Source: Turneriella sp. (GTDB taxonomy: Bacteria > Spirochaetota > Leptospiria > Turneriellales > Turneriellaceae). Taken from it: DNA of 64,000 nt. The position numbers were made by a program, and so were the translations under genes. The notes below the pieces were generated by a model, which saw only the letters and a program-made list of their open reading frames with translations, was not told the origin of the DNA and searched no databases. Location of the stretch: NCBI GenBank assembly GCA_965279515.1, contig CBDIID010000003.1, forward strand, positions 448,001-512,000. The letters are read 5' to 3'. Positions 17,684 through 57,371 of this stretch are shown in pieces; the first letter of the stretch is position 1, and each line of letters opens with the position of its first letter.

Positions 17684-19467
17684 GAAACACCCTGCTTATC
17701 GCCTGTGCCCTCGCTTTCGGCTGCGCTTCGCTGCCTGAAAAAAAAATCTTAAAAGAGAAGGATTACCTGCTCTGGCAAAAAGATCTCACCGAACGCATCA
17801 GCCGTGAAGGCGATGATTTGGGCCTTCTCGCAGATCTCGCCGAAATCGCCCTGATCAACGAAGACTTTGATACGGCCCTGAAATCTGTCAGAACCCTGCA
17901 AACGAAGTCGGTAGGTGAAATCAAACCCCTGCTGTTACAGGAGATTGAAATTCTGCGCTATGCCTGGCGGCTCGATGAAGCTTTGAAAAAGCTCGACGCC
18001 TATGTCGCGGCCTACCCGCGCGATGCCACCAGCGCTCTTCTCAATAAACGCCGGCCCGTGATCGAAAAGAGCAAGGCATTGCCCGCACCGCTCAAGACTT
18101 CACCCTATGCGAAAAACCCCTACCCTGGATTTACCTACGCTGAATTCATGCAGGCGCCCAACGTCGTTTATCTCGATGGTCCTGAAAAGGAAATCTTTGC
18201 ACAGGCGAAAACGCTTGAGCCGATCGATCAGGAACTCTGGCTTAAGACAATAAAAGAATCGCCGCAGATCAGCTGGGACATGGGCGACGATGCCGAAATC
18301 CACCATTTCCCTGCATACCCCCCGGGCGCGACGAAACCCGTGGAAACGCCGGGGTTTTCCCAGAACAAGGCCGGCAACGTCACGCTGCGGCATGCAGATG
18401 GGCGGCGCGAAGATCTTGACTTTCTGCAGAAGCGTGGCTGCTCATTGCCCGGTTTTTCGCCCTGGCTCGATTTCTTCGTCGTGAGTTGCAAAAACGGCGA
18501 TCACCGGGATCTCGTATTATTCATGCGCACGGGTGCTGAATGGAAAGAGAACCCTATGGGCAGTGACATCAACACGCCGTTCGATGAAGTGCAGCCGCGC
18601 ATCTCGGCCGACGGGCGCTATCTGTTCTTTGCGTCCGATGGGCATCCCGGCTATGGCGCCTTTGATTATTTTTATGCGACCATCAGCTATGCTCAGGGCG
18701 CCATACGGTTCGGTGCTGCGGTGAATTTCGGTCCGCAGGTAAATACGTTCCATAACGAAGTCTATCCATTACAGATTTCCTCAGCGACAGGCGGCATCGT
18801 GTTTTCGGCTGAGGGCAAAAGCGGCCTCATCGGCAAAACCATGGCCGGTGGATTACCCCACGTGCAGGAAACCTTTTCGTGCCGGTTTATTGCCTATGGC
18901 GACAATGGCGCCATCGCCCAACAGGTGACGCTGCGCCCCGTGAAGGGGGACATCCGCCCTGCCATTACACTTGCCACTGGCGAAAAAGCCGACTGGATTC
19001 GCCTCATCGCCGGGGCCGAATACCGCGTGGCTTTCCGCACCACGGCGGGCATAGCGCTGGAGTTTAAGGTTCAGGCGCCCCCAGCTAAAGAAGCTAATTT
19101 TAACATGGAACGCTTCAGTGTGCTCGCGGCGCCTTCAGCGATTCGGCTCACCTACGATGACGACGTCACCAAGGTAACTACAGAAATTCGCCCTGAAATA
19201 GAAAAAGCGGCCCGGCGCCTGAAAGAAGATCCGAATCTGCATGCGCTGATCGAAGGCCATGCTGACAATATCGGCGGTGCTGGCTACAACCAGGGGCTCT
19301 CAGAAAAACGCGCCGAAGCGGCAAAAAAGCAGTTTATCCAATTGGGCATTCCGTCGCGGCGTATCACCACGCGCGGCTGGGGACAAGACAGGCCGCTCAA
19401 CGCTAACGCGACGAAAGAAGAGCGCACAGCAAACCGCCGCATTGAAATTCTGCTCGTCCCTGAATAA
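17680..19467 (+). CDS. OmpA-family lipoprotein (TPR-like, PD40, OmpA domains)
   Basis: Lipobox AFGC; INTPFDEVQP.ISADGRYLFFASD; EGHAD...NQGLSEKRA...NRRIE. Confidence 0.88.
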   Translation: MRNTLLIACALAFGCASLPEKKILKEKDYLLWQKDLTERISREGDDLGLLADLAEIALINEDFDTALKSVRTLQTKSVGEIKPLLLQEIEILRYAWRLDEALKKLDAYVAAYPRDATSALLNKRRPVIEKSKALPAPLKTSPYAKNPYPGFTYAEFMQAPNVVYLDGPEKEIFAQAKTLEPIDQELWLKTIKESPQISWDMGDDAEIHHFPAYPPGATKPVETPGFSQNKAGNVTLRHADGRREDLDFLQKRGCSLPGFSPWLDFFVVSCKNGDHRDLVLFMRTGAEWKENPMGSDINTPFDEVQPRISADGRYLFFASDGHPGYGAFDYFYATISYAQGAIRFGAAVNFGPQVNTFHNEVYPLQISSATGGIVFSAEGKSGLIGKTMAGGLPHVQETFSCRFIAYGDNGAIAQQVTLRPVKGDIRPAITLATGEKADWIRLIAGAEYRVAFRTTAGIALEFKVQAPPAKEANFNMERFSVLAAPSAIRLTYDDDVTKVTTEIRPEIEKAARRLKEDPNLHALIEGHADNIGGAGYNQGLSEKRAEAAKKQFIQLGIPSRRITTRGWGQDRPLNANATKEERTANRRIEILLVPE

Positions 19468-50196: not shown

Positions 50197-51357
50197 TTAT
50201 TTGATTTGGAAGTTTTCGACGTCGTCGTCTGAACTGCTCGCTGATTGTTGATTACCTTCGGTCGTTACCGAAGATTGCCGATCGTTGGCTGGGTGCAGCT
50301 GATCTGCACGGGTCTTGTAGTCCGCGGCCAGTGCCTTCACCGTTTCGATGGGTGCCGTTTGCAGAGACTTAATGATCTCTTCAGATGCTTTGCCTTCTCC
50401 CGCGCACAGGCGGTAGAATTTTTCGGCGTCGTCGCGCAGCGCTTTCTCGTGCTGCTCGCCGAGCTCGGCTTTCGGTTTGAGTTCGGCGATCTCTTGCGTG
50501 AGCGCTTCGTTCACACGGCTGACGTCAGCCATCAATGCGTCGAATTGCGCCTGCGAGATTTCCACCTCTTCAACCCCTTTGGCGAAAAGACCCTCGGTTT
50601 TCATGCCGAGCTTCTCGCAGAATTGTTTTTTCAATTTCACGTTCGTTTCCTCCTGAGCGTGTAGTTCTTCATTTTTTGATACGTTGTTTTCTGCCGAAGA
50701 ATCTTCGGCCGGTTGAAACCAGTGGCGTGCCAGGCGTTGCTTGGCGTTCGGGTCGCCGCCCTGGTATACGAGAGAGAACTCGTCGTAGCTGGTGATCTCG
50801 GTGACGTCGATCGTCACGAGTTTGTTGTCAACTTCGGCGCCGAGCTTGTACCAGAAATTTTCTAGATCGGGATGAGACTTCTGGAATTTAAAGCGAATGC
50901 CTACAGATCCGCTGTGGATTGCCGGCGGTCTCATTTTCAAACCGGCGGCGATGCGGGGGCTTACTATTTTGTCGATCTTCAACTCAACGTCGATACCGTT
51001 GGGCTCTTCAGTTTCAGACCAGATCGATTCACTGACAACGCCGAGCCACTGGTTCACGTCGCGGTCGTGGTTGGGGTAAACGGTTTGGTGCAAGAGTAGC
51101 TTTACACTTTTTTTGAGAACATCACCGAGCGAGAAGTTCAGCCAGTAGCCAGGGATCACGACTTTAGAAAGAGCACGGAAGCGAGGATAGATATAATTCT
51201 CGTCTTCCTTCATCTCCGTCGGCGCACCTTCGGCGGGTGCGAGCAACTTCGCGGCGCTGTTTATGCAGACGCCTTCGAAGCTGTTCTTGCGCAGCATTAC
51301 GGTGAGCTCGCCGTCGACGAGCGTGACCATGTTACCTTTGCTTTTCATTCTTATCAT
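50197..51357 (-). CDS. Prohead protease/scaffold
   Basis: NH, SGSVG, E.SLV..G.DP.A protease motifs; coiled-coil C-terminus. Confidence 0.78.
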   Translation of the reverse strand: MIRMKSKGNMVTLVDGELTVMLRKNSFEGVCINSAAKLLAPAEGAPTEMKEDENYIYPRFRALSKVVIPGYWLNFSLGDVLKKSVKLLLHQTVYPNHDRDVNQWLGVVSESIWSETEEPNGIDVELKIDKIVSPRIAAGLKMRPPAIHSGSVGIRFKFQKSHPDLENFWYKLGAEVDNKLVTIDVTEITSYDEFSLVYQGGDPNAKQRLARHWFQPAEDSSAENNVSKNEELHAQEETNVKLKKQFCEKLGMKTEGLFAKGVEEVEISQAQFDALMADVSRVNEALTQEIAELKPKAELGEQHEKALRDDAEKFYRLCAGEGKASEEIIKSLQTAPIETVKALAADYKTRADQLHPANDRQSSVTTEGNQQSASSSDDDVENFQIK

Positions 51358-52439
51358 GTGAGATCCTCAAAGTCTGCCGTTGCGGCGTTGGGTATGTTGC
51401 GGATGAAGGATGTGCCTTCGGGGTAGATCTTGAACTTCACGCCTTCGAGGCTGCGCTCAAGCGTGATCTCGAAATAACCGAACTCGTCGCTGATGACGCT
51501 GCGCGGGTGTGGCAACAGGCTGATGCCTTTGGTGGCCACGACCTGAATCTCGCGGCCTGGAAGCGGATCGCCGGTACCGTCTTTCAGATAACCGGAGACG
51601 ACGCAGATCTGCGGATCGGCGAGCGAAGGTGCGGCGACCGCAGCGTTGAGCGTGCACGAAGTGATCGTCGGCCGCGCGGTACCGTCGAGCGAGCGCAGCA
51701 CGATGCCGATGCGCACCCACGACTTTTGCGCGAGCGGCGGCAGATCGGTGAGCGCCGACGCCTGATCATAGCTGCGGTCTGAATTTACCCAGGCGCCGCC
51801 ATCGTAAAATTTCGCGACACCGTCGATAATCCAGAAGTAGCGGATGCCGGTTTGCGCCGGAGCGCTCACCGACTGCAGCAGCTCTTCGGCTTCAGTGATC
51901 AGCACCGGCGGTGTGAGCAGGTAGAGATTCGCGTCGTCGTAGTATTGCACCGGGCCGTTCAGCTCGAAGCGAATGATCTGCACCGTGTCGGCAGAATCAG
52001 TGAGCACGAGTTTGACGTAGCGGTAACGAACCGCGGTGAACGATTGGTTGATGTCGTCTTCGACATCGGGGATGTTGACGATCTCGTCGAAGTCTATACC
52101 GTCTTCTGAGAGATAAAGAATCGCCGACGCGGGCAATCCGCCTAACGCGAAGTCGAGTTTGAGACGGTTCAGCCATAACAGGCGACCGAGATCGATTTCG
52201 ATTTCGTGAGGCCCCGACACAACCGTAGACCAGTACGTCGCGGCGTCGCCATCGACCATGTGCGATGCCGGGTGATCGGCGTGTGCCGAAGTTGCCTCGA
52301 TAGATTTATTTAAAGCGAGATCGGTGCTCGTGTTCGCGAGCTCTTTGATGCGCGCGACTGCGGACGCAATTTCTACGCGCTCCGCATTAAAGCGAAACTC
52401 GTTAGAGCGGTCGAAAAGGTATGTGTGTCGTACTGACAT
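51354..52439 (-). CDS. Discoidin (F5/8 type C) domain protein
   Basis: A..MVDGD..TYW...IEIDLG...SEDG..F...RYRYVKL; C-terminal G.L.D..G.PL...SDEFGYF. Confidence 0.75.
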   Translation of the reverse strand: MSVRHTYLFDRSNEFRFNAERVEIASAVARIKELANTSTDLALNKSIEATSAHADHPASHMVDGDAATYWSTVVSGPHEIEIDLGRLLWLNRLKLDFALGGLPASAILYLSEDGIDFDEIVNIPDVEDDINQSFTAVRYRYVKLVLTDSADTVQIIRFELNGPVQYYDDANLYLLTPPVLITEAEELLQSVSAPAQTGIRYFWIIDGVAKFYDGGAWVNSDRSYDQASALTDLPPLAQKSWVRIGIVLRSLDGTARPTITSCTLNAAVAAPSLADPQICVVSGYLKDGTGDPLPGREIQVVATKGISLLPHPRSVISDEFGYFEITLERSLEGVKFKIYPEGTSFIRNIPNAATADFEDLT

Positions 52440-52677: not shown

Positions 52678-52980
52678 TTATTGGTAGTAGAGTTCGCGGG
52701 CCAAGTCTCTGACATGCACCGGTAACTCTTCGAGCGGGTATTCGCCGCGCGCGATGCGGGCGAACTCGTTTCTCCAGGTGCGCGGTGTGCCACCGGTGAG
52801 AAGCCCCTCGAAATTCTTGCGGGCGAAGGTGCCGAGGTGCTGCACGAAGTAAGCGTCGAGAAATTTACTCTCGTCTTCGTTCATCTCGACCAGGTTCATG
52901 TCGAACTCTTCGCCCTGCAGCTGATCGCGGTTCACCAACTCGAAGTCGTTGACGAGTGTCTGCTCGCGCGCTTCGGTCAT
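52678..52980 (-). CDS. Small acidic protein, candidate immunity protein
   Basis: ATGA overlap with the MuF-toxin stop; 100 aa, E/D-rich. Confidence 0.6.
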   Translation of the reverse strand: MTEAREQTLVNDFELVNRDQLQGEEFDMNLVEMNEDESKFLDAYFVQHLGTFARKNFEGLLTGGTPRTWRNEFARIARGEYPLEELPVHVRDLARELYYQ

Positions 52981-54404
52981 GGTACAACCTCGACATAAGT
53001 GTCTTCGTACTCGGCGAAGTTCTTTTTCTTAGGCCTGAACGAAGTGGCGATGCTCGACGACTTATCGTCGACCACGACCGCGAGATTCTCTTTCGTCTGG
53101 TAGAACATGGTTCTTGCTGCGCCCTTGTTATAGTAGACGAACAGTCGATCATAGTCGGTCAATACTTTTTTGGCCAGCGCCGCATAAGCCTTCGCGTTCT
53201 TCGGAGCGTCCGCTCCGGTGAACTCGTCCTTGTGCTTATCGAAGTGCGAGGCCAGCGCTTCGGGCTGTCCCCAGTCTGCGCCCTGGAAGGCGTTGATCTT
53301 CGAGGCGAACTCGCTCGGGTTCAGATCGTGAAAATCCTGCCAGCGCAGAAATGCTTGCTGGCGTTTGATCTGCCCCGTGGCTTCGTCGACCGTCGTGGCT
53401 TCGGGCATCTTCGGCTGCGTGAGTTCTTTTCCCGTGCGGGTCAAGATGCGCTCTTCGCGTCCGACGACCACCGTCGTGCGGCACCGTCCATGGTAAGGCG
53501 GCATGCGGCACGCGAGTGAAGCGATCACCTGCGGCGTCTTGCCTTGCGGCACCGTCTTCGGCCAGGGAAATTTTGACACGACGTCGGATGGCTCTGTGTC
53601 CAGGACATCCTGCACAAATTCGGCCATCGTTTCTACCCGTACTCTGCGGCCATTCATCTCGCGGCAAATTGCCGAAGTCTTCTGGTCGAGAATCGCGACG
53701 ATCTCCAGCTCTTGAAAGCCGAGCTCTTGCATCGACAGCACCTGCGAAAAGTTGCGCGCCTTGTTCACCGCGTTCGAGACAACCAGGCGGTAACGGCTCT
53801 GCGCTTCGTCTTCACCCAAAACCTTGCCGGCAGCTTTCGCTGCGGCGATGGCTTTGTCGCGAATCTCTTTCGCCGATGTACCTTTACCTTCGAGCTCGTC
53901 GAGCACGGCCTGCCGCATCTCGTCGCGGAAGTCGTTATAGACAGCGCCGTAGTCGTAACCCTGCGCCGCCTCGAACCACTTCATCGCTTTCGGCAGCTGC
54001 TGCGTCGCGGTTTTCTGCGCGGGCTTTACCCCGCTCGTCGCACCATCGACCCAGGCGTTGCGGATGTGATCGCGCACCGCGGCGGAAACCTCCGCCGGGA
54101 GTGTGTCTCTCATCTCGCCGTCGAGCCAGTCGAGTGCGGAATCGGCATCGCCTTTTGCAAGACGATCTTCGAGCCCGCGCACGATGCGCTCGACTTCTAC
54201 CTTGTACTGACCCAGCATCGCCGATTGAGCCGCGGCATCTTGCGCCGCAGCCTTCTCGGCTTCTTTGCGTTTCGTAACGTTGTCAATCGCCGGCTTGCCG
54301 TCCTCTGACGGTTTGCCGGTTTTGGCTAATCTGCTTTCCGGAAGGGAATCAGATTCGTGCCCCGTGCAGCCTTCGTGGTCGCACGGTGAAGTATTGCGGT
54401 CTTT
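52977..54404 (-). CDS. MuF/SPP1 gp7-like minor head protein with C-terminal toxin-like domain; probably entered by -1 frameshift from portal
   Basis: EIVAILDQKTSAICREMNG...PPYHGRCRT MuF core; extension HFDKHKDEF...IATSFRP; alternative internal ATG at 54218. Confidence 0.8.
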   Translation of the reverse strand, partial: KDRNTSPCDHEGCTGHESDSLPESRLAKTGKPSEDGKPAIDNVTKRKEAEKAAAQDAAAQSAMLGQYKVEVERIVRGLEDRLAKGDADSALDWLDGEMRDTLPAEVSAAVRDHIRNAWVDGATSGVKPAQKTATQQLPKAMKWFEAAQGYDYGAVYNDFRDEMRQAVLDELEGKGTSAKEIRDKAIAAAKAAGKVLGEDEAQSRYRLVVSNAVNKARNFSQVLSMQELGFQELEIVAILDQKTSAICREMNGRRVRVETMAEFVQDVLDTEPSDVVSKFPWPKTVPQGKTPQVIASLACRMPPYHGRCRTTVVVGREERILTRTGKELTQPKMPEATTVDEATGQIKRQQAFLRWQDFHDLNPSEFASKINAFQGADWGQPEALASHFDKHKDEFTGADAPKNAKAYAALAKKVLTDYDRLFVYYNKGAARTMFYQTKENLAVVVDDKSSSIATSFRPKKKNFAEYEDTYVEVVP

Positions 54405-55693
54405 TTTTTTAGCGCGCGCATCGTTGCTGCGGTCGCCTTTGTGCCGGTGGCCTTCTCGTAGCCGGCCTCGCGCGCGGCTTCGTCGGCAGAGATCCATCCG
54501 GCATCTTGTTTGAGCAGTATATTCAGCAGCTCAAAATTCTTAGCTTGCGCATCGGCAGCCGGGTCGAGCGAGCGCGATGGGTTGAATGTTACGGTGACTG
54601 CCTTTACGCGGAAACCTTTGAGCACCAGGTGCAGCCAATACACTTTCTCAAGGAAGCGTTTCAAAACGCGCTGACGCCCACGCAGTTTTGAAAGGAAACT
54701 CTCGTAGACGACGCCTGCATAGGTTTCGGTTGTTGAGTAACTGCGGCCGAGGAGCGACGGGTCCATGTCGATGCCAGAGGCGAGCTGCTCTTCACCGATC
54801 TGGAACAGATCAGCAGCACCGCGCGCGTCGCCGGTTACGCTTTTATGATCGATCGTGACGTCGTCGTAGCTGACGGCAACGCCTGACTTGGCAAAGTTTT
54901 CACGGAAGGATTTCGCAAAGTCCTCGAGATTCTTTTTAAGGCGGGCGGTGTATTCCCGCGGCGCTTCGTTATTGTTCGGCGCCGGTTTCTTCTTGGCATG
55001 GACGAACCCGAGCAGGCCGATTTTCCTGATGACTTCTTTGATGCGGTCGATGAAATCCTTTTGCGATTTTGCCGTATCGAGCGCGGCTATGAACGGGGGA
55101 ATTCCGTACGGGCTTTTCTCGTCGCGCTGCAGCGGAATATACATGTACTGATGTTCGTTGAGTTCGACATCCTCGCCGATGCCCGTTTGGAAAGGAGCCC
55201 AGTCGCCGCGGTCATTGCGTTTGAAGCGAACTTCTTTCACCGGCACGAGCTCGACTTTGCGAATGCCAGAGAAGTCGCCTTCTGGAATCGCCTCAGCAGA
55301 AAGCGCGCCGCGGATTGTTACCTGGCGGAGAATAGCATCGACGAGGGAATCGATTCCGGCAGCCGGCTTGAAAGCTGTCTTTGCAAAATCCTTGAGCTCT
55401 TCGCGCGCCTTTACCGATTCGGCTTCAGAGAGGCCCTCGAAAGAGACCTGGTGTCCGGTATTCGCAAAGCTGATCGTACGCTCCACGGCCTGCGACAGAT
55501 CTGGCGTAGAAAGAACGAGCTTCTCTATTTCGTCTACGAGCTCGAACGGTACCGGCGGCGTCACAGAATCGAGCAGTTCACTGCGTTTGCGCTCTGGCGT
55601 CAGCTCGCGCTCCGACGGAATATCTACCGCAAAGGCTTGCTGCGCCGGCTCTTTGCGGCCGCGAGAGAATATATTTCCGAGGAAGCGAAACAT
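54326..55693 (-). CDS. Portal protein
   Basis: Follows terminase; SPYGIPP, G.D..LLG....T.., IS.DEAAREAGY end motif. Confidence 0.85.
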   Translation of the reverse strand: MFRFLGNIFSRGRKEPAQQAFAVDIPSERELTPERKRSELLDSVTPPVPFELVDEIEKLVLSTPDLSQAVERTISFANTGHQVSFEGLSEAESVKAREELKDFAKTAFKPAAGIDSLVDAILRQVTIRGALSAEAIPEGDFSGIRKVELVPVKEVRFKRNDRGDWAPFQTGIGEDVELNEHQYMYIPLQRDEKSPYGIPPFIAALDTAKSQKDFIDRIKEVIRKIGLLGFVHAKKKPAPNNNEAPREYTARLKKNLEDFAKSFRENFAKSGVAVSYDDVTIDHKSVTGDARGAADLFQIGEEQLASGIDMDPSLLGRSYSTTETYAGVVYESFLSKLRGRQRVLKRFLEKVYWLHLVLKGFRVKAVTVTFNPSRSLDPAADAQAKNFELLNILLKQDAGWISADEAAREAGYEKATGTKATAATMRALKKKTAILHRATTKAARGTNLIPFRKAD

Positions 55694-55697
55694 CTTG

Positions 55698-57371
55698 TTA
55701 TGTGAGGCTCAGATAAATCGGGTCCACACCCGTGACGACATGCAACGGTGAAACTTCAGACGCGATGCGTGCGTAGTTTAATGCCATGCCGTAGTGATTC
55801 GGAACTTTTTTCTTGTAGTGAATTTCGTTGATACCGCCCTTATCGACACCCTCTTTGATGAGCATCTTAAGCTGTGACTTGAAAACTTCGTAGGCTGTAA
55901 TCTTGTCGGCGGGCATGCGCTTCGGGTCTGGTAATTCTATCCGCACATCACGCAGCGATTCCGTGGTTTCGTCCAGCGACTCGTCACGGTTCACAGTAAC
56001 ACGTGGCACGGCGAATTCGCCCTGGCCTTCTTCGCCGGTTTTGAGAGTGTCGCCTTTATAGTAATTGATGTAAACGCGTCCCTGAAAATGGCGGGCGATA
56101 TTTTTCGCGAGCGTCTTGTACGGCATCGCGTCGATGACGCCGCAGTATCCGCCGCGTTGCTCGACCGCGTCGATGATGGCTTTCTCATTGTCGGCCGGCA
56201 TTTCGATAAAGTCGGTAACGCGCAGGCGATTCTCGTGAGGCTGCATGAAGACGAGGTGGCATTTGTCGCCGACGTCCATACCCCAGAAGGTGAAACGCGT
56301 GTGAGAATCGGCCGAGTATAGTCTCTGCGCGGCGCGCAGCACGTCGTCGGTAATGGGCTTAGAGTTAACGGTGCTGAACGGCTGGCCGAGAATAGAGATA
56401 GAGAAGTTCTTTTTCTGGATCAATGTCGTAGCCGATTCGTACCGGCGCTTGATCTCAGCGGCAGAGATATGCTCGAACAGCAGGTGCGAAAGGTGCCGGC
56501 CGACAATATCCTTGGATCGCTTCGGAAATTCAGCGACCCAGACGCCCGTGCTCATGTTGAGTTTGCGCGAACACTTCACGCAGCCGATGTAGACGTTATT
56601 GCCTTTCGTAATGAGGCAATCAGGGAAGGTCTTGTCGGGAAAATTCCAGAATCCGCATCCGCATTTTACGCCGAAGAACCGGCTGTCAGATTCTTTAAAA
56701 TCAGCATCGATGCCAAAGTCATCCTCTGACGGTTGCGACAACTTGGTGATGGCTGGGTCGGATGAGTGAAGCAAACGGTCTTCGGCGAACTGCAGGTTCT
56801 CCTGATTCGACTCGTCGACTTCGTCCATTACGCCGTGATCGATCGAGATCGACTTCACCTTGCGCTTCGAAAAAACGCCACGAAAATAGATTGAGAATTT
56901 TCCGAATTGCTTGAGGCCGACATTGTCGGTCAGACTGGGCCCTTGCAGCGACGAAAGCAGCTCCGAGTTTTCAATAATCGGATTCGCTTTGTCCTGTACA
57001 TAATCAGCGATGTCTTCGTCTGTTGGAAAAAAGTAACTGGTGTTCGATCCGTATTTTACGCCGAGGTAAACGGATTTGAGAAACGCGTAGGTAGAGATCG
57101 CCATCTGAGCGGCTTTGCGATAAACTTCACGCGGCGGCTTCGGTTGCGTATAGATCTCGCGCAGCGGCTCGTGGTCCTTAAGACTGAACGGCTGCCAGGA
57201 GCGACCAACCTTGATGCGGATATTTTGCATCACCCATTCTAGCATGTTCGTCGCGCCGAAGTGCTTGCGCCCTTCGACGAGAAACTGCTCGAATTGCTCT
57301 TCGTTCTTCGCGGCCATGTCTTCAGGAAAGAACAGGACGAGTGCTAATATTAATGCGAGTATGCGTTTCAC
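55698..57371 (-). CDS. Terminase large subunit (lambda gpA-like family)
   Basis: KAAQMAIS Walker A variant, MDEVD Walker B, SQP, Cys motifs, GMDVG nuclease, NHY. Confidence 0.88.
   Translation of the reverse strand: MKRILALILALVLFFPEDMAAKNEEQFEQFLVEGRKHFGATNMLEWVMQNIRIKVGRSWQPFSLKDHEPLREIYTQPKPPREVYRKAAQMAISTYAFLKSVYLGVKYGSNTSYFFPTDEDIADYVQDKANPIIENSELLSSLQGPSLTDNVGLKQFGKFSIYFRGVFSKRKVKSISIDHGVMDEVDESNQENLQFAEDRLLHSSDPAITKLSQPSEDDFGIDADFKESDSRFFGVKCGCGFWNFPDKTFPDCLITKGNNVYIGCVKCSRKLNMSTGVWVAEFPKRSKDIVGRHLSHLLFEHISAAEIKRRYESATTLIQKKNFSISILGQPFSTVNSKPITDDVLRAAQRLYSADSHTRFTFWGMDVGDKCHLVFMQPHENRLRVTDFIEMPADNEKAIIDAVEQRGGYCGVIDAMPYKTLAKNIARHFQGRVYINYYKGDTLKTGEEGQGEFAVPRVTVNRDESLDETTESLRDVRIELPDPKRMPADKITAYEVFKSQLKMLIKEGVDKGGINEIHYKKKVPNHYGMALNYARIASEVSPLHVVTGVDPIYLSLT

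Follow-up and report, generated by a model that had tools for sequence, protein, structure and literature searches.

Slippage on runs of A has been described for dnaX, where Escherichia coli uses a -1 ribosomal frameshift at A_AAA_AAG and Thermus thermophilus uses RNA-polymerase slippage on nine A/T (PMC5009743, PMC3711429; here and below, papers are cited for the parts of their text that were available to us). Among phages, a -1 frameshift is known for the tail assembly chaperone G/GT (Xu, Hendrix and Duda 2004, as cited in PMC7302621, PMC7911831 and PMC3556154). In-frame portal-MuF genes have been described for Microbacterium phages (PMC7302621) and a portal-MuF-PBECR architecture among polyvalent proteins (PMC5512222), while the MuF polymorphic toxins of temperate phages have been treated as separate proteins that bind the portal non-covalently (PMC5576092). 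Here we analyse a stretch of 64,000 nucleotides (nt) from Turneriella sp. (assembly GCA_965279515.1, contig CBDIID010000003.1, positions 448,001 to 512,000 of the forward strand), called the window throughout and numbered from its first letter. Our subject is the junction, within a prophage, between the portal gene and the gene of a MuF-type minor head protein with a C-terminal ribonuclease (RNase)-like domain.

At this junction the portal gene carries a run of nine A's followed by a G, and the MuF open reading frame (ORF) lies in the -1 frame. We consider it likely that the portal and MuF-RNase genes form one recoded unit, in which slippage would yield a plain portal plus a portal-MuF-RNase chain. 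An earlier note, made from the sequence of the window, had proposed that a minority chain of about 905 amino acids (aa) is produced in this way beside the 455-aa portal, and the comparative evidence presented here supports that proposal. The anatomy of the junction, its conservation, the coding constraint on the shifted frame and the predicted fold of the C-terminal domain are documented below, whereas the slippage itself, its rate, its level (RNA or ribosome) and its role in assembly are what we infer.

Anatomy of the portal-MuF junction

The minus strand reads CGC GCG CTA AAA AAA AAG ACC at the junction, with the nine A's at 54410-54402 and the G at 54401 (on the plus strand, a T9 beginning at 54402). 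The run codes for portal residues K429-K431, directly behind the last conserved portal block (...ISADEAAREAGYEKATG). The conserved portal core ends near residue 426, and a non-conserved tail of 24 codons, which ranges from 1 to 25 codons among relatives, extends beyond the A run. In the -1 frame the MuF ORF is open from ATG 54497 to its stop at 52977 (506 aa) and reads KDRNTSPCDHEGC... after the run. The earlier note had placed the A9G tract behind the portal end motif, the MuF ORF in the -1 frame at the run and open to 52977, and the length of the fusion chain at about 905 aa. The ORF and profile coordinates bear out the first of these and the ORF reading the second, and the third agrees with a predicted slipped chain of 431 + 474 = 905 aa.

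The features of the junction and its neighbours are as follows.

54326..55693, minus strand: portal gene, 0 frame; ORF of 455 aa, matching phrog_3753 portal (E 3.8e-103) over residues 35-426
54401..54410, minus strand: slip site A9G; portal-frame reading CTA AAA AAA AAG, with the heptamer A_AAA_AAG in phase
54411..54437, minus strand: predicted hairpin upstream of the run; 27 nt, about -10 kcal/mol
54362..54386, minus strand: hairpin downstream of the run, from the earlier note; CCGTGC...GCACGG folds
54219..54400, minus strand: linker, -1 frame; 60 codons between the run and ATG 54218
52977..54218, minus strand: MuF-type minor head protein plus C-terminal RNase-like domain; 413 aa from ATG 54218, -1 relative to the portal
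52980..53459, minus strand: C-terminal 160 aa; putative RNase, colicin D/CdiA-CT-like (BECR-fold) by predicted fold
52678..52980, minus strand: candidate immunity/partner ORF of 100 aa, overlapping the MuF stop (ATGA)
55698..57371, minus strand: large terminase, directly upstream of the portal; Pfam GpA_ATPase (E 1.8e-9) and phrog_675 (E 5.9e-113)

The MuF gene follows immediately downstream of the portal gene. Its ORF matches phrog_9907 'minor head protein and DNA pilot' (E 2.4e-41), and against Pfam Phage_Mu_F (PF04233) it reaches E 6.3e-6 with 27.3 bits, below the cut-off of 29.6. The window portal had no Pfam match at E<=0.01. The window linker contains no ATG, GTG or TTG and holds a Cys/His motif, C-x-H-E-x-C.

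Cys-rich motifs of this kind (CxCG, CC, or the C-x-H-E-x-C of the window) lie 8-20 residues past the lysine run, in the fused or the -1 frame, in the window (54330-54400, minus strand) and in related loci L006, L007, L008, L009, L013, L017, L018, L019, L020, L065 and L080. Loci L003, L004 and L005 are without a post-run Cys motif. The motif may bind a metal or mark a region of protease cleavage.

Conservation of the A run and of the -1 offset

We collected 116 related loci (L numbers) by whole-genome searches among relatives and by alignment-based scans of genome contigs (41 loci) and metagenome contigs (52 loci). Removal of 13 duplicates and of 8 loci without the junction left 95 distinct junctions, and an A9 or A10 run stands between the portal core and MuF in 26 of them. 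Portal identity to the window among these run-bearing loci is 29-73%, so low that synonymous sites had ample time to change, yet the run was kept. The genome as a whole contains 89 A/T runs of 9 or more in 4.9 Mb. In 26 prophage ORFs, Lys is encoded by 271 AAA vs 256 AAG codons, and the junction triplet is the only pure A run among 8 KKK triplets. Judged by these counts, the A run at the junction is more than chance.

The earlier note had suggested searching homologous prophages for a conserved slippery run together with a -1 overlap or an in-frame fusion. Both states were found: among the 26 run-bearing junctions, 12 are in-frame portal-MuF fusions and 14 are splits. MuF lies in the -1 frame in all 14 splits, in 13 by calculation and in L060 by reading; L060 computes as +1 across masked N's, and the frames beside its run read as -1. 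No unambiguous +1 split occurs among the 95 distinct junctions. The fusions are exemplified by L004, an in-frame portal-MuF protein of 885 aa. Every one of the 12 fused loci has stops close behind the run, 1-9 codons past it in the -1 frame and 0-7 codons past it in the +1 frame, and because both other frames stop nearby, slippage there would yield the plain portal.

Shorter or different slip sequences were also seen. Loci L016 (A6) and L080 (A7) are split, with A_AAA_AAG in phase and the 0-frame stop one codon later. Locus L019, also split, has no run; the corresponding position reads C_CCT_TTT, and a TTG overlaps its portal stop.

In a portal tree of 46 rows, built quickly and rooted at the midpoint, the run appears in 20 of the 22 rows of two clades. 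By record titles, the hosts in these clades are Spirochaetota, except for one metagenome-assembled genome (MAG) labelled Planctomycetales. None of the 24 rows from other phyla has the run, and 17 of these are plain in-frame fusions. As a single query the window portal found nothing in genome or viral contigs, and peptide patterns were too specific. Among named phages only distant relatives came up (portal identity 22-31%), none of them informative on the junction.

Some of the collected loci deserve mention in their own right. Genome G032 has two prophage copies, L003 (2640-3215) and L015, with a 23-aa tandem repeat (MLDFPNG.EYPRGKTSGSGFSEA) between the portal core and the A10 run. One prophage has about 8 copies of the repeat and the other has 2, which makes the linker length-variable. 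Genome G044 carries identical split-type loci (A10, -1) on two contigs, L007 and L012, plus the fused-type L014 (A9, in-frame) from a different subclade, so both genotypes co-exist in one host. At L011/L028 (G032:C11), a portal copy has one in-frame TGA and lies about 2.5 kb from its MuF part; this is probably a disrupted prophage copy. Lastly, both flanks of the window junction match a 13.3-kb wastewater metagenome contig from another study (run X5), with 12 and 82 differences, and in that contig 101 other letters replace the window's 104 at 54330-54435, the region of the run and the 0-frame tail.

Ribosomal frameshifting or polymerase slippage as possible mechanisms

All 16 of the A-run split loci tabulated have an X_XXY_YYZ heptamer in phase (A_AAA_AAG, A_AAA_AAC or A_AAA_AAA). 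In a whole-genome scan with ARAGORN, 39 tRNAs were found, among them one tRNA-Lys with the anticodon UUU (ttt). A sole tRNA-Lys has been given as the reason for the shiftiness of A_AAA_AAG in E. coli, and bacterial RNA polymerase slips efficiently in vivo on runs of at least 9 A (PMC5009743). The run length of 9-10 in 26 loci exceeds what the heptamer needs, and the two split loci L016 and L080 make do with A6 and A7. From the sequence, ribosomal -1 frameshifting at A_AAA_AAG appears feasible, and RNA-polymerase slippage on the run appears equally so. Either level, or both, may act.

The predicted hairpin upstream of the run (54411-54437) has a 3' arm that ends at the first A, with a folding energy of -10.0 kcal/mol in the window. 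In L013, the closest relative of the window and from the same genus (72-73% identity), a hairpin of different sequence stands at the same place (-8.5 kcal/mol). A hairpin that reaches -6 kcal/mol or better and ends 0-1 nt before the run was seen in 8 of the 26 run-bearing loci vs 4.4% of 1560 control windows, an enrichment that only this targeted test brought out. When the upstream 60 nt were simply folded, the result was not better than shuffles (z -0.01 for the window, +0.64 for L013). A nascent-RNA hairpin abutting the slip motif has been reported as a stimulator (Penno et al. 2015, cited in PMC5009743), and the upstream hairpin offers a hint that polymerase slippage could be stimulated in this way.

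The earlier note had instead pointed to the downstream hairpin (CCGTGC...GCACGG, 54386-54362). It does fold, but it is probably not a stimulator: its z is -1.08, with 31 of 200 shuffles folding as well, it starts 14 nt past the site, and L013 folds differently at this place. We therefore rejected it as a frameshift stimulator. There is no motif resembling a Shine-Dalgarno (SD) sequence just upstream of the window slip site, and of the stimulatory elements considered, a structure 5-9 nt downstream or an upstream SD-like sequence, the window has neither. In L016 a 7-bp hairpin lies 7 nt after the AAG (z -2.15, 8 of 200 shuffles as good).

MuF start codons and coding constraint in the -1 frame

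A start-codon survey covered 17 split loci. In L006, L007, L021 and L043, the -1 frame contains no ATG, GTG or TTG between the point where it opens and a point past the start of MuF homology. The -1 frame of L018, L033, L035, L045, L066 and L080 opens no more than 3 nt from the run, the -1-frame stop abutting the run or lying in it. In L013 no start codon precedes the MuF ATG anywhere along the open -1 frame. Read in this way, MuF is without a start of its own in many splits. In the window, a -1-frame start at ATG 54497 was considered and rejected: the codon falls within the conserved portal core, does not occur in L013 and is not preceded by an SD-like motif.

Substitutions in the MuF ORF fall on codon positions 1, 2 and 3 as 91/73/188 for window/L013, 65/42/185 for L033/L035 and 66/42/185 for L007/L021, a third-position share of 188 of 352 in the first pair and 185 of 292 in the second. 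These patterns indicate that the -1-frame MuF ORFs are under purifying selection. In the linker, between the portal stop and MuF homology, -1-frame third positions take 8 of 15, 12 of 20, 12 of 20, 12 of 22 and 13 of 24 changes. As the metagenome contig scan found no close relative (>72%) of the window, the codon test on the window stayed confined to its pair with L013.

Weighing the alternatives

Several points weigh against a recoded unit. The start codon ATG 54218 is also present in L013 and stands where stand-alone MuF homologues begin (position 6 of phrog_9907 aligns to residue 96), and MuF could also, or only, be made independently from it in the window. The coding signal in the window/L013 linker past the portal stop is small (substitutions 4/3/8 on codon positions 1/2/3 of the -1 frame), and in the 24-codon overlap the -1 frame is not favoured, at 12/6/9 vs 6/9/12 for the 0 frame in the same pair. 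Strong abutting hairpins are missing from 18 of the 26 run-bearing loci, and the window has no conserved downstream stimulator. The related loci are kin, so that their counts overstate independence, and the portal tree is no firmer than its quick, midpoint-rooted construction allows. The 17 fused, run-less relatives imply that a fusion-only portal ring is evidently viable and that a dual product is not obligatory in the family. Finally, contigs hide minority A10 molecules.

One alternative is that of two ordinary genes, the portal ending at 54326 and MuF starting at ATG 54218, with the run as merely three lysines and the upstream -1 frame untranslated. This ATG lies 184-187 nt past the run in the window and L013 and, as the earlier note had said, is without an SD-like motif in the window. 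The contrast with neighbouring genes that the note had drawn is weak: a crude scan of the module found an SD-like motif at 14 of 26 ORF starts and none at the other 12. Two ordinary genes would also agree with some distant relatives, L068-L071, in which portal and MuF are separate genes. Yet L068, as read from the translation, differs from the window in that GGAGG lies upstream of its MuF ATG. What this explanation leaves unaccounted for is why an A9 or A10 has been kept at one spot in 26 diverged junctions despite near-equal usage of AAA and AAG, and why the offset is -1 in 13 of 14 splits by calculation and in L060 by reading beside the run. Nor does it explain relatives of the same layout that lack any start codon, or the 105 nt from portal stop to ATG, which are open and change mostly at -1-frame third positions. 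On this balance we regard two independent genes as unlikely.

Phase variation at the DNA level, in which replication slippage on a hypermutable homopolymer toggles between a fused (ON) and a split (OFF) genotype with no recoding, seems to us slightly less probable again. Poly-A tracts are slippery for DNA polymerase too (PMC3711429), both genotypes are found among the relatives, and A9 and A10 both occur in the fused and in the split state. On the portal tree the frame state switches at least three times while the run persists. Within close groups, however, the frame state is stable (L008/L014/L020, L009/L022/L023 and L007/L021). All 7 distinct loci of a deep clade (L033, L035, L043, L045, L054, L060 and L062) are split with intact, selected MuF ORFs, at MuF identities down to 34%, and this counts against phase variation because a silent OFF state would not preserve those ORFs. 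The only split that computes as +1 is L060, with its masked N's and its -1 reading beside the run, and three run assemblies of the window all have A9, though contigs hide minorities.

The same three runs bear on whether the A9 is real. Each has a contig across 53900-54900 that matches the window without a difference or a gap (1 study, 2 samples, word depth about 5), though these are possibly the source data themselves. Locus L013, from an independent assembly of the same genus, has the same A9 and the same frames, with a 3-nt indel just past the run. Several split relatives come from assemblies whose contig names point to SPAdes or MEGAHIT. The earlier note had named an A10 in the reads as the finding that would speak for a plain fusion or an assembly error. 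As far as contigs can show, the A9 is reproduced in all three runs and in L013, and an assembly error is unlikely. Although homopolymers are error-prone, the loss of one base from an in-frame A10 gives exactly such a -1 layout and the covering depth is only about 5, the explanation as a mis-assembled fusion or a prophage decayed by an inactivating frameshift is very improbable given the gapless A9 in three runs, the independent split in L013 with its indel, 13 further run-bearing split loci, MuF ORFs under purifying selection and a morphogenesis module that looks intact.

The C-terminal domain and its candidate downstream partner

The C-terminal 160 aa of MuF were modelled with AlphaFold2 on a 14-row alignment, giving a predicted local distance difference test (pLDDT) score of 84.5. 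A Foldseek search of this model against the Protein Data Bank (PDB) returned a CDI toxin (CdiA-CT, 8ey4_A; E 5.1e-4, prob 1.00, template-modelling (TM) score 0.67 by target) and the colicin D tRNase domain (1tfo, 5znm, 1tfk and 1v74; prob 0.96-0.99). A nearly invariant His stands in an H-x-x-K-H-x-x-E-F region of the domain. No Pfam model, the PBECR models included, matched the C-terminal 160 aa at E<=10, and no PBECR family matched either of two homologues at that threshold. Sequence-search matches of the domain in Pfam and the PDB (Mastoparan, E 1.4; YycI, E 0.037; profilin, E 0.47) were set aside as not meaningful. The domain is a putative RNase-like toxin, by a likeness at the level of predicted fold only, and at that level the earlier note's label of a toxin agrees with a colicin D/CdiA-CT-like fold.

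Homologues of the 100-aa ORF were found by tblastn only downstream of MuF genes that have the C-terminal domain (14 locus records, 10 of them distinct besides the window). No homologue was found by tblastn in L048 or L058, both of which are without the domain. Complex prediction for the 100-aa ORF with the RNase-like domain gave a score of 0.80, against 0.00 for the best of 3 controls; the score is a model confidence, whose mark was reached by 116 of 157 solved complexes and by 2 of 215 mismatched pairs. At least 57% of contacts agree between runs, the partner has a pLDDT of at least 81, and the predicted contacts lie beside the conserved His of the RNase-like domain. The 100-aa ORF is therefore predicted, from the modelled complex, to bind the domain like an immunity protein.

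The homologues of this ORF share a strongly conserved C-terminal motif, W...G.YPLE.LP.HVRD.A..LYY, and have a variable N-terminal half. The predicted contacts fall within that variable half (residues 12-31 and 55-67), so a different partner may be bound by the conserved tail.

Prophage context and side observations

The prophage module in the window includes the small and large terminase, portal, MuF, protease, major head protein, sheath, tape measure, baseplate, fibre and a CI-like repressor. The MuF cassette is separated from the head protease by a 361-aa protein (51354-52439, minus strand) with an F5/8 type C (discoidin) domain (Pfam E 1.3e-11). It is present in L063 too, at 77% identity, and a carbohydrate-binding module at such a place is unusual.

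A second A9 run of the window lies at 17738-17746 on the plus strand, in frame in an ORF that starts at ATG 17680. This ORF begins like a lipoprotein signal peptide (...AFGC ASLPEKKI...), with the A9 run after the Cys. The run may be a site of slippage or phase variation in a surface protein.

A model for expression of the junction and its significance

In the model that we favour, standard decoding would give the 455-aa portal, and some of the expression events would change to the -1 frame at the A9G tract (54410-54401), either by the ribosome slipping back one base on A_AAA_AAG or by the polymerase adding one A on the nine-T template. The shifted product of about 905 aa would comprise portal, linker, MuF and the colicin D-like RNase, and the slip frequency would set how many of the twelve portal subunits bear the MuF-effector. 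The small downstream ORF probably neutralises the RNase in the producing cell. In-frame relatives keep the tract, slippage there would give the plain portal, and both genotypes would make both products, as in dnaX tau/gamma.

A wider version of this model is tentative, and we give it slightly less than even odds. The poly-A tract may be a ratio-setting device of head assembly that is selected in both genotypes, with every phage of these spirochaete-associated clades making both products. Slippage would then be largely by the polymerase and aided by the hairpin, the RNase effector would be covalently tethered, kept harmless by the immunity protein and delivered with the DNA, and a flip of one A would invert the ratio.

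MuF/gp7 proteins occur in few copies on the portal, often with toxins or early effectors. To our knowledge, neither the setting of their copy number nor the loading of such cargo has been explained. If the model is correct, a slip site that ties a fixed fraction of portals covalently to MuF and an RNase would be a simple and testable answer. A case from head assembly would also join the short list of conserved phage recoding events. On the wider version, portal-MuF recoding would stand beside the tail chaperone G/GT shift as a second widespread event of this kind in tailed phages.

There are practical consequences too. Gene callers at present split such loci into a truncated portal and a MuF whose start is missing or wrong, or label them frameshifted pseudogenes. 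Recognising the slip site would put this right in the prophages of spirochaetes, Leptospira among them, and in related MAG viruses. The in-frame and -1 genotypes that share one conserved tract would also provide a natural experiment on ribosomal vs polymerase slippage.

Comparison with known systems

In the literature that we consulted, no description of recoding at the portal-MuF junction was found. The words 'frameshift', 'slippage' and 'fusion' are absent from PMC5576092, and 'frameshift' is absent from PMC5512222. Neither 'portal' nor 'MuF' occurs in the examined part of the recoding review PMC5009743, and the frameshifts in the available parts of PMC7911831 and PMC3556154 concern the tail chaperone only. 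The main text of PMC3711429 is without 'portal', and two of its supplements are without portal, morphogenesis, Leptospira or minor head; the third was unsearchable, and a listed cluster there is possible.

The closest parallel in mechanism is with dnaX tau/gamma. Both systems have the same slip sequences (A_AAA_AAG, A9-A10), nearby stops in the non-zero frames, and relatives in which the long form is encoded in frame or across a shift; as in dnaX, our locus would give two products with a common N-terminus in a set ratio. The window host also has a sole tRNA-Lys(UUU). In contrast, the genes are unrelated, a phage portal and MuF on the one hand and a clamp-loader subunit on the other, and the shifted product of the window would be the longer one. 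The window lacks a conserved SD-like element or an E. coli-type downstream hairpin, and its case is known here from sequence alone.

The G/GT shift is, as we propose for our locus, a conserved -1 recoding in a phage morphogenesis operon that sets a fixed minority of an extended structural protein. It differs in its genes and slip sequences and belongs to the tail rather than the head; its site has no long homopolymer and no in-frame variant.

Like the MuF polymorphic toxins, the window MuF lies directly downstream of the portal and has a variable, toxin-like C-terminal domain and a small downstream gene whose product is predicted to bind it, but its C-terminal domain matches no Pfam toxin model. 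The portal-MuF-PBECR fusions have the same order of portal, MuF and BECR-type RNase, and the in-frame relatives of the window, such as L004 with its 885 aa, are built exactly so. Those proteins have been described as plain fusions, whereas the window junction has a conserved slip tract with the parts in different frames. Recoding of the dnaX type and portal-MuF fusion are both known kinds, and what would be new here is recoding at the portal-MuF junction.

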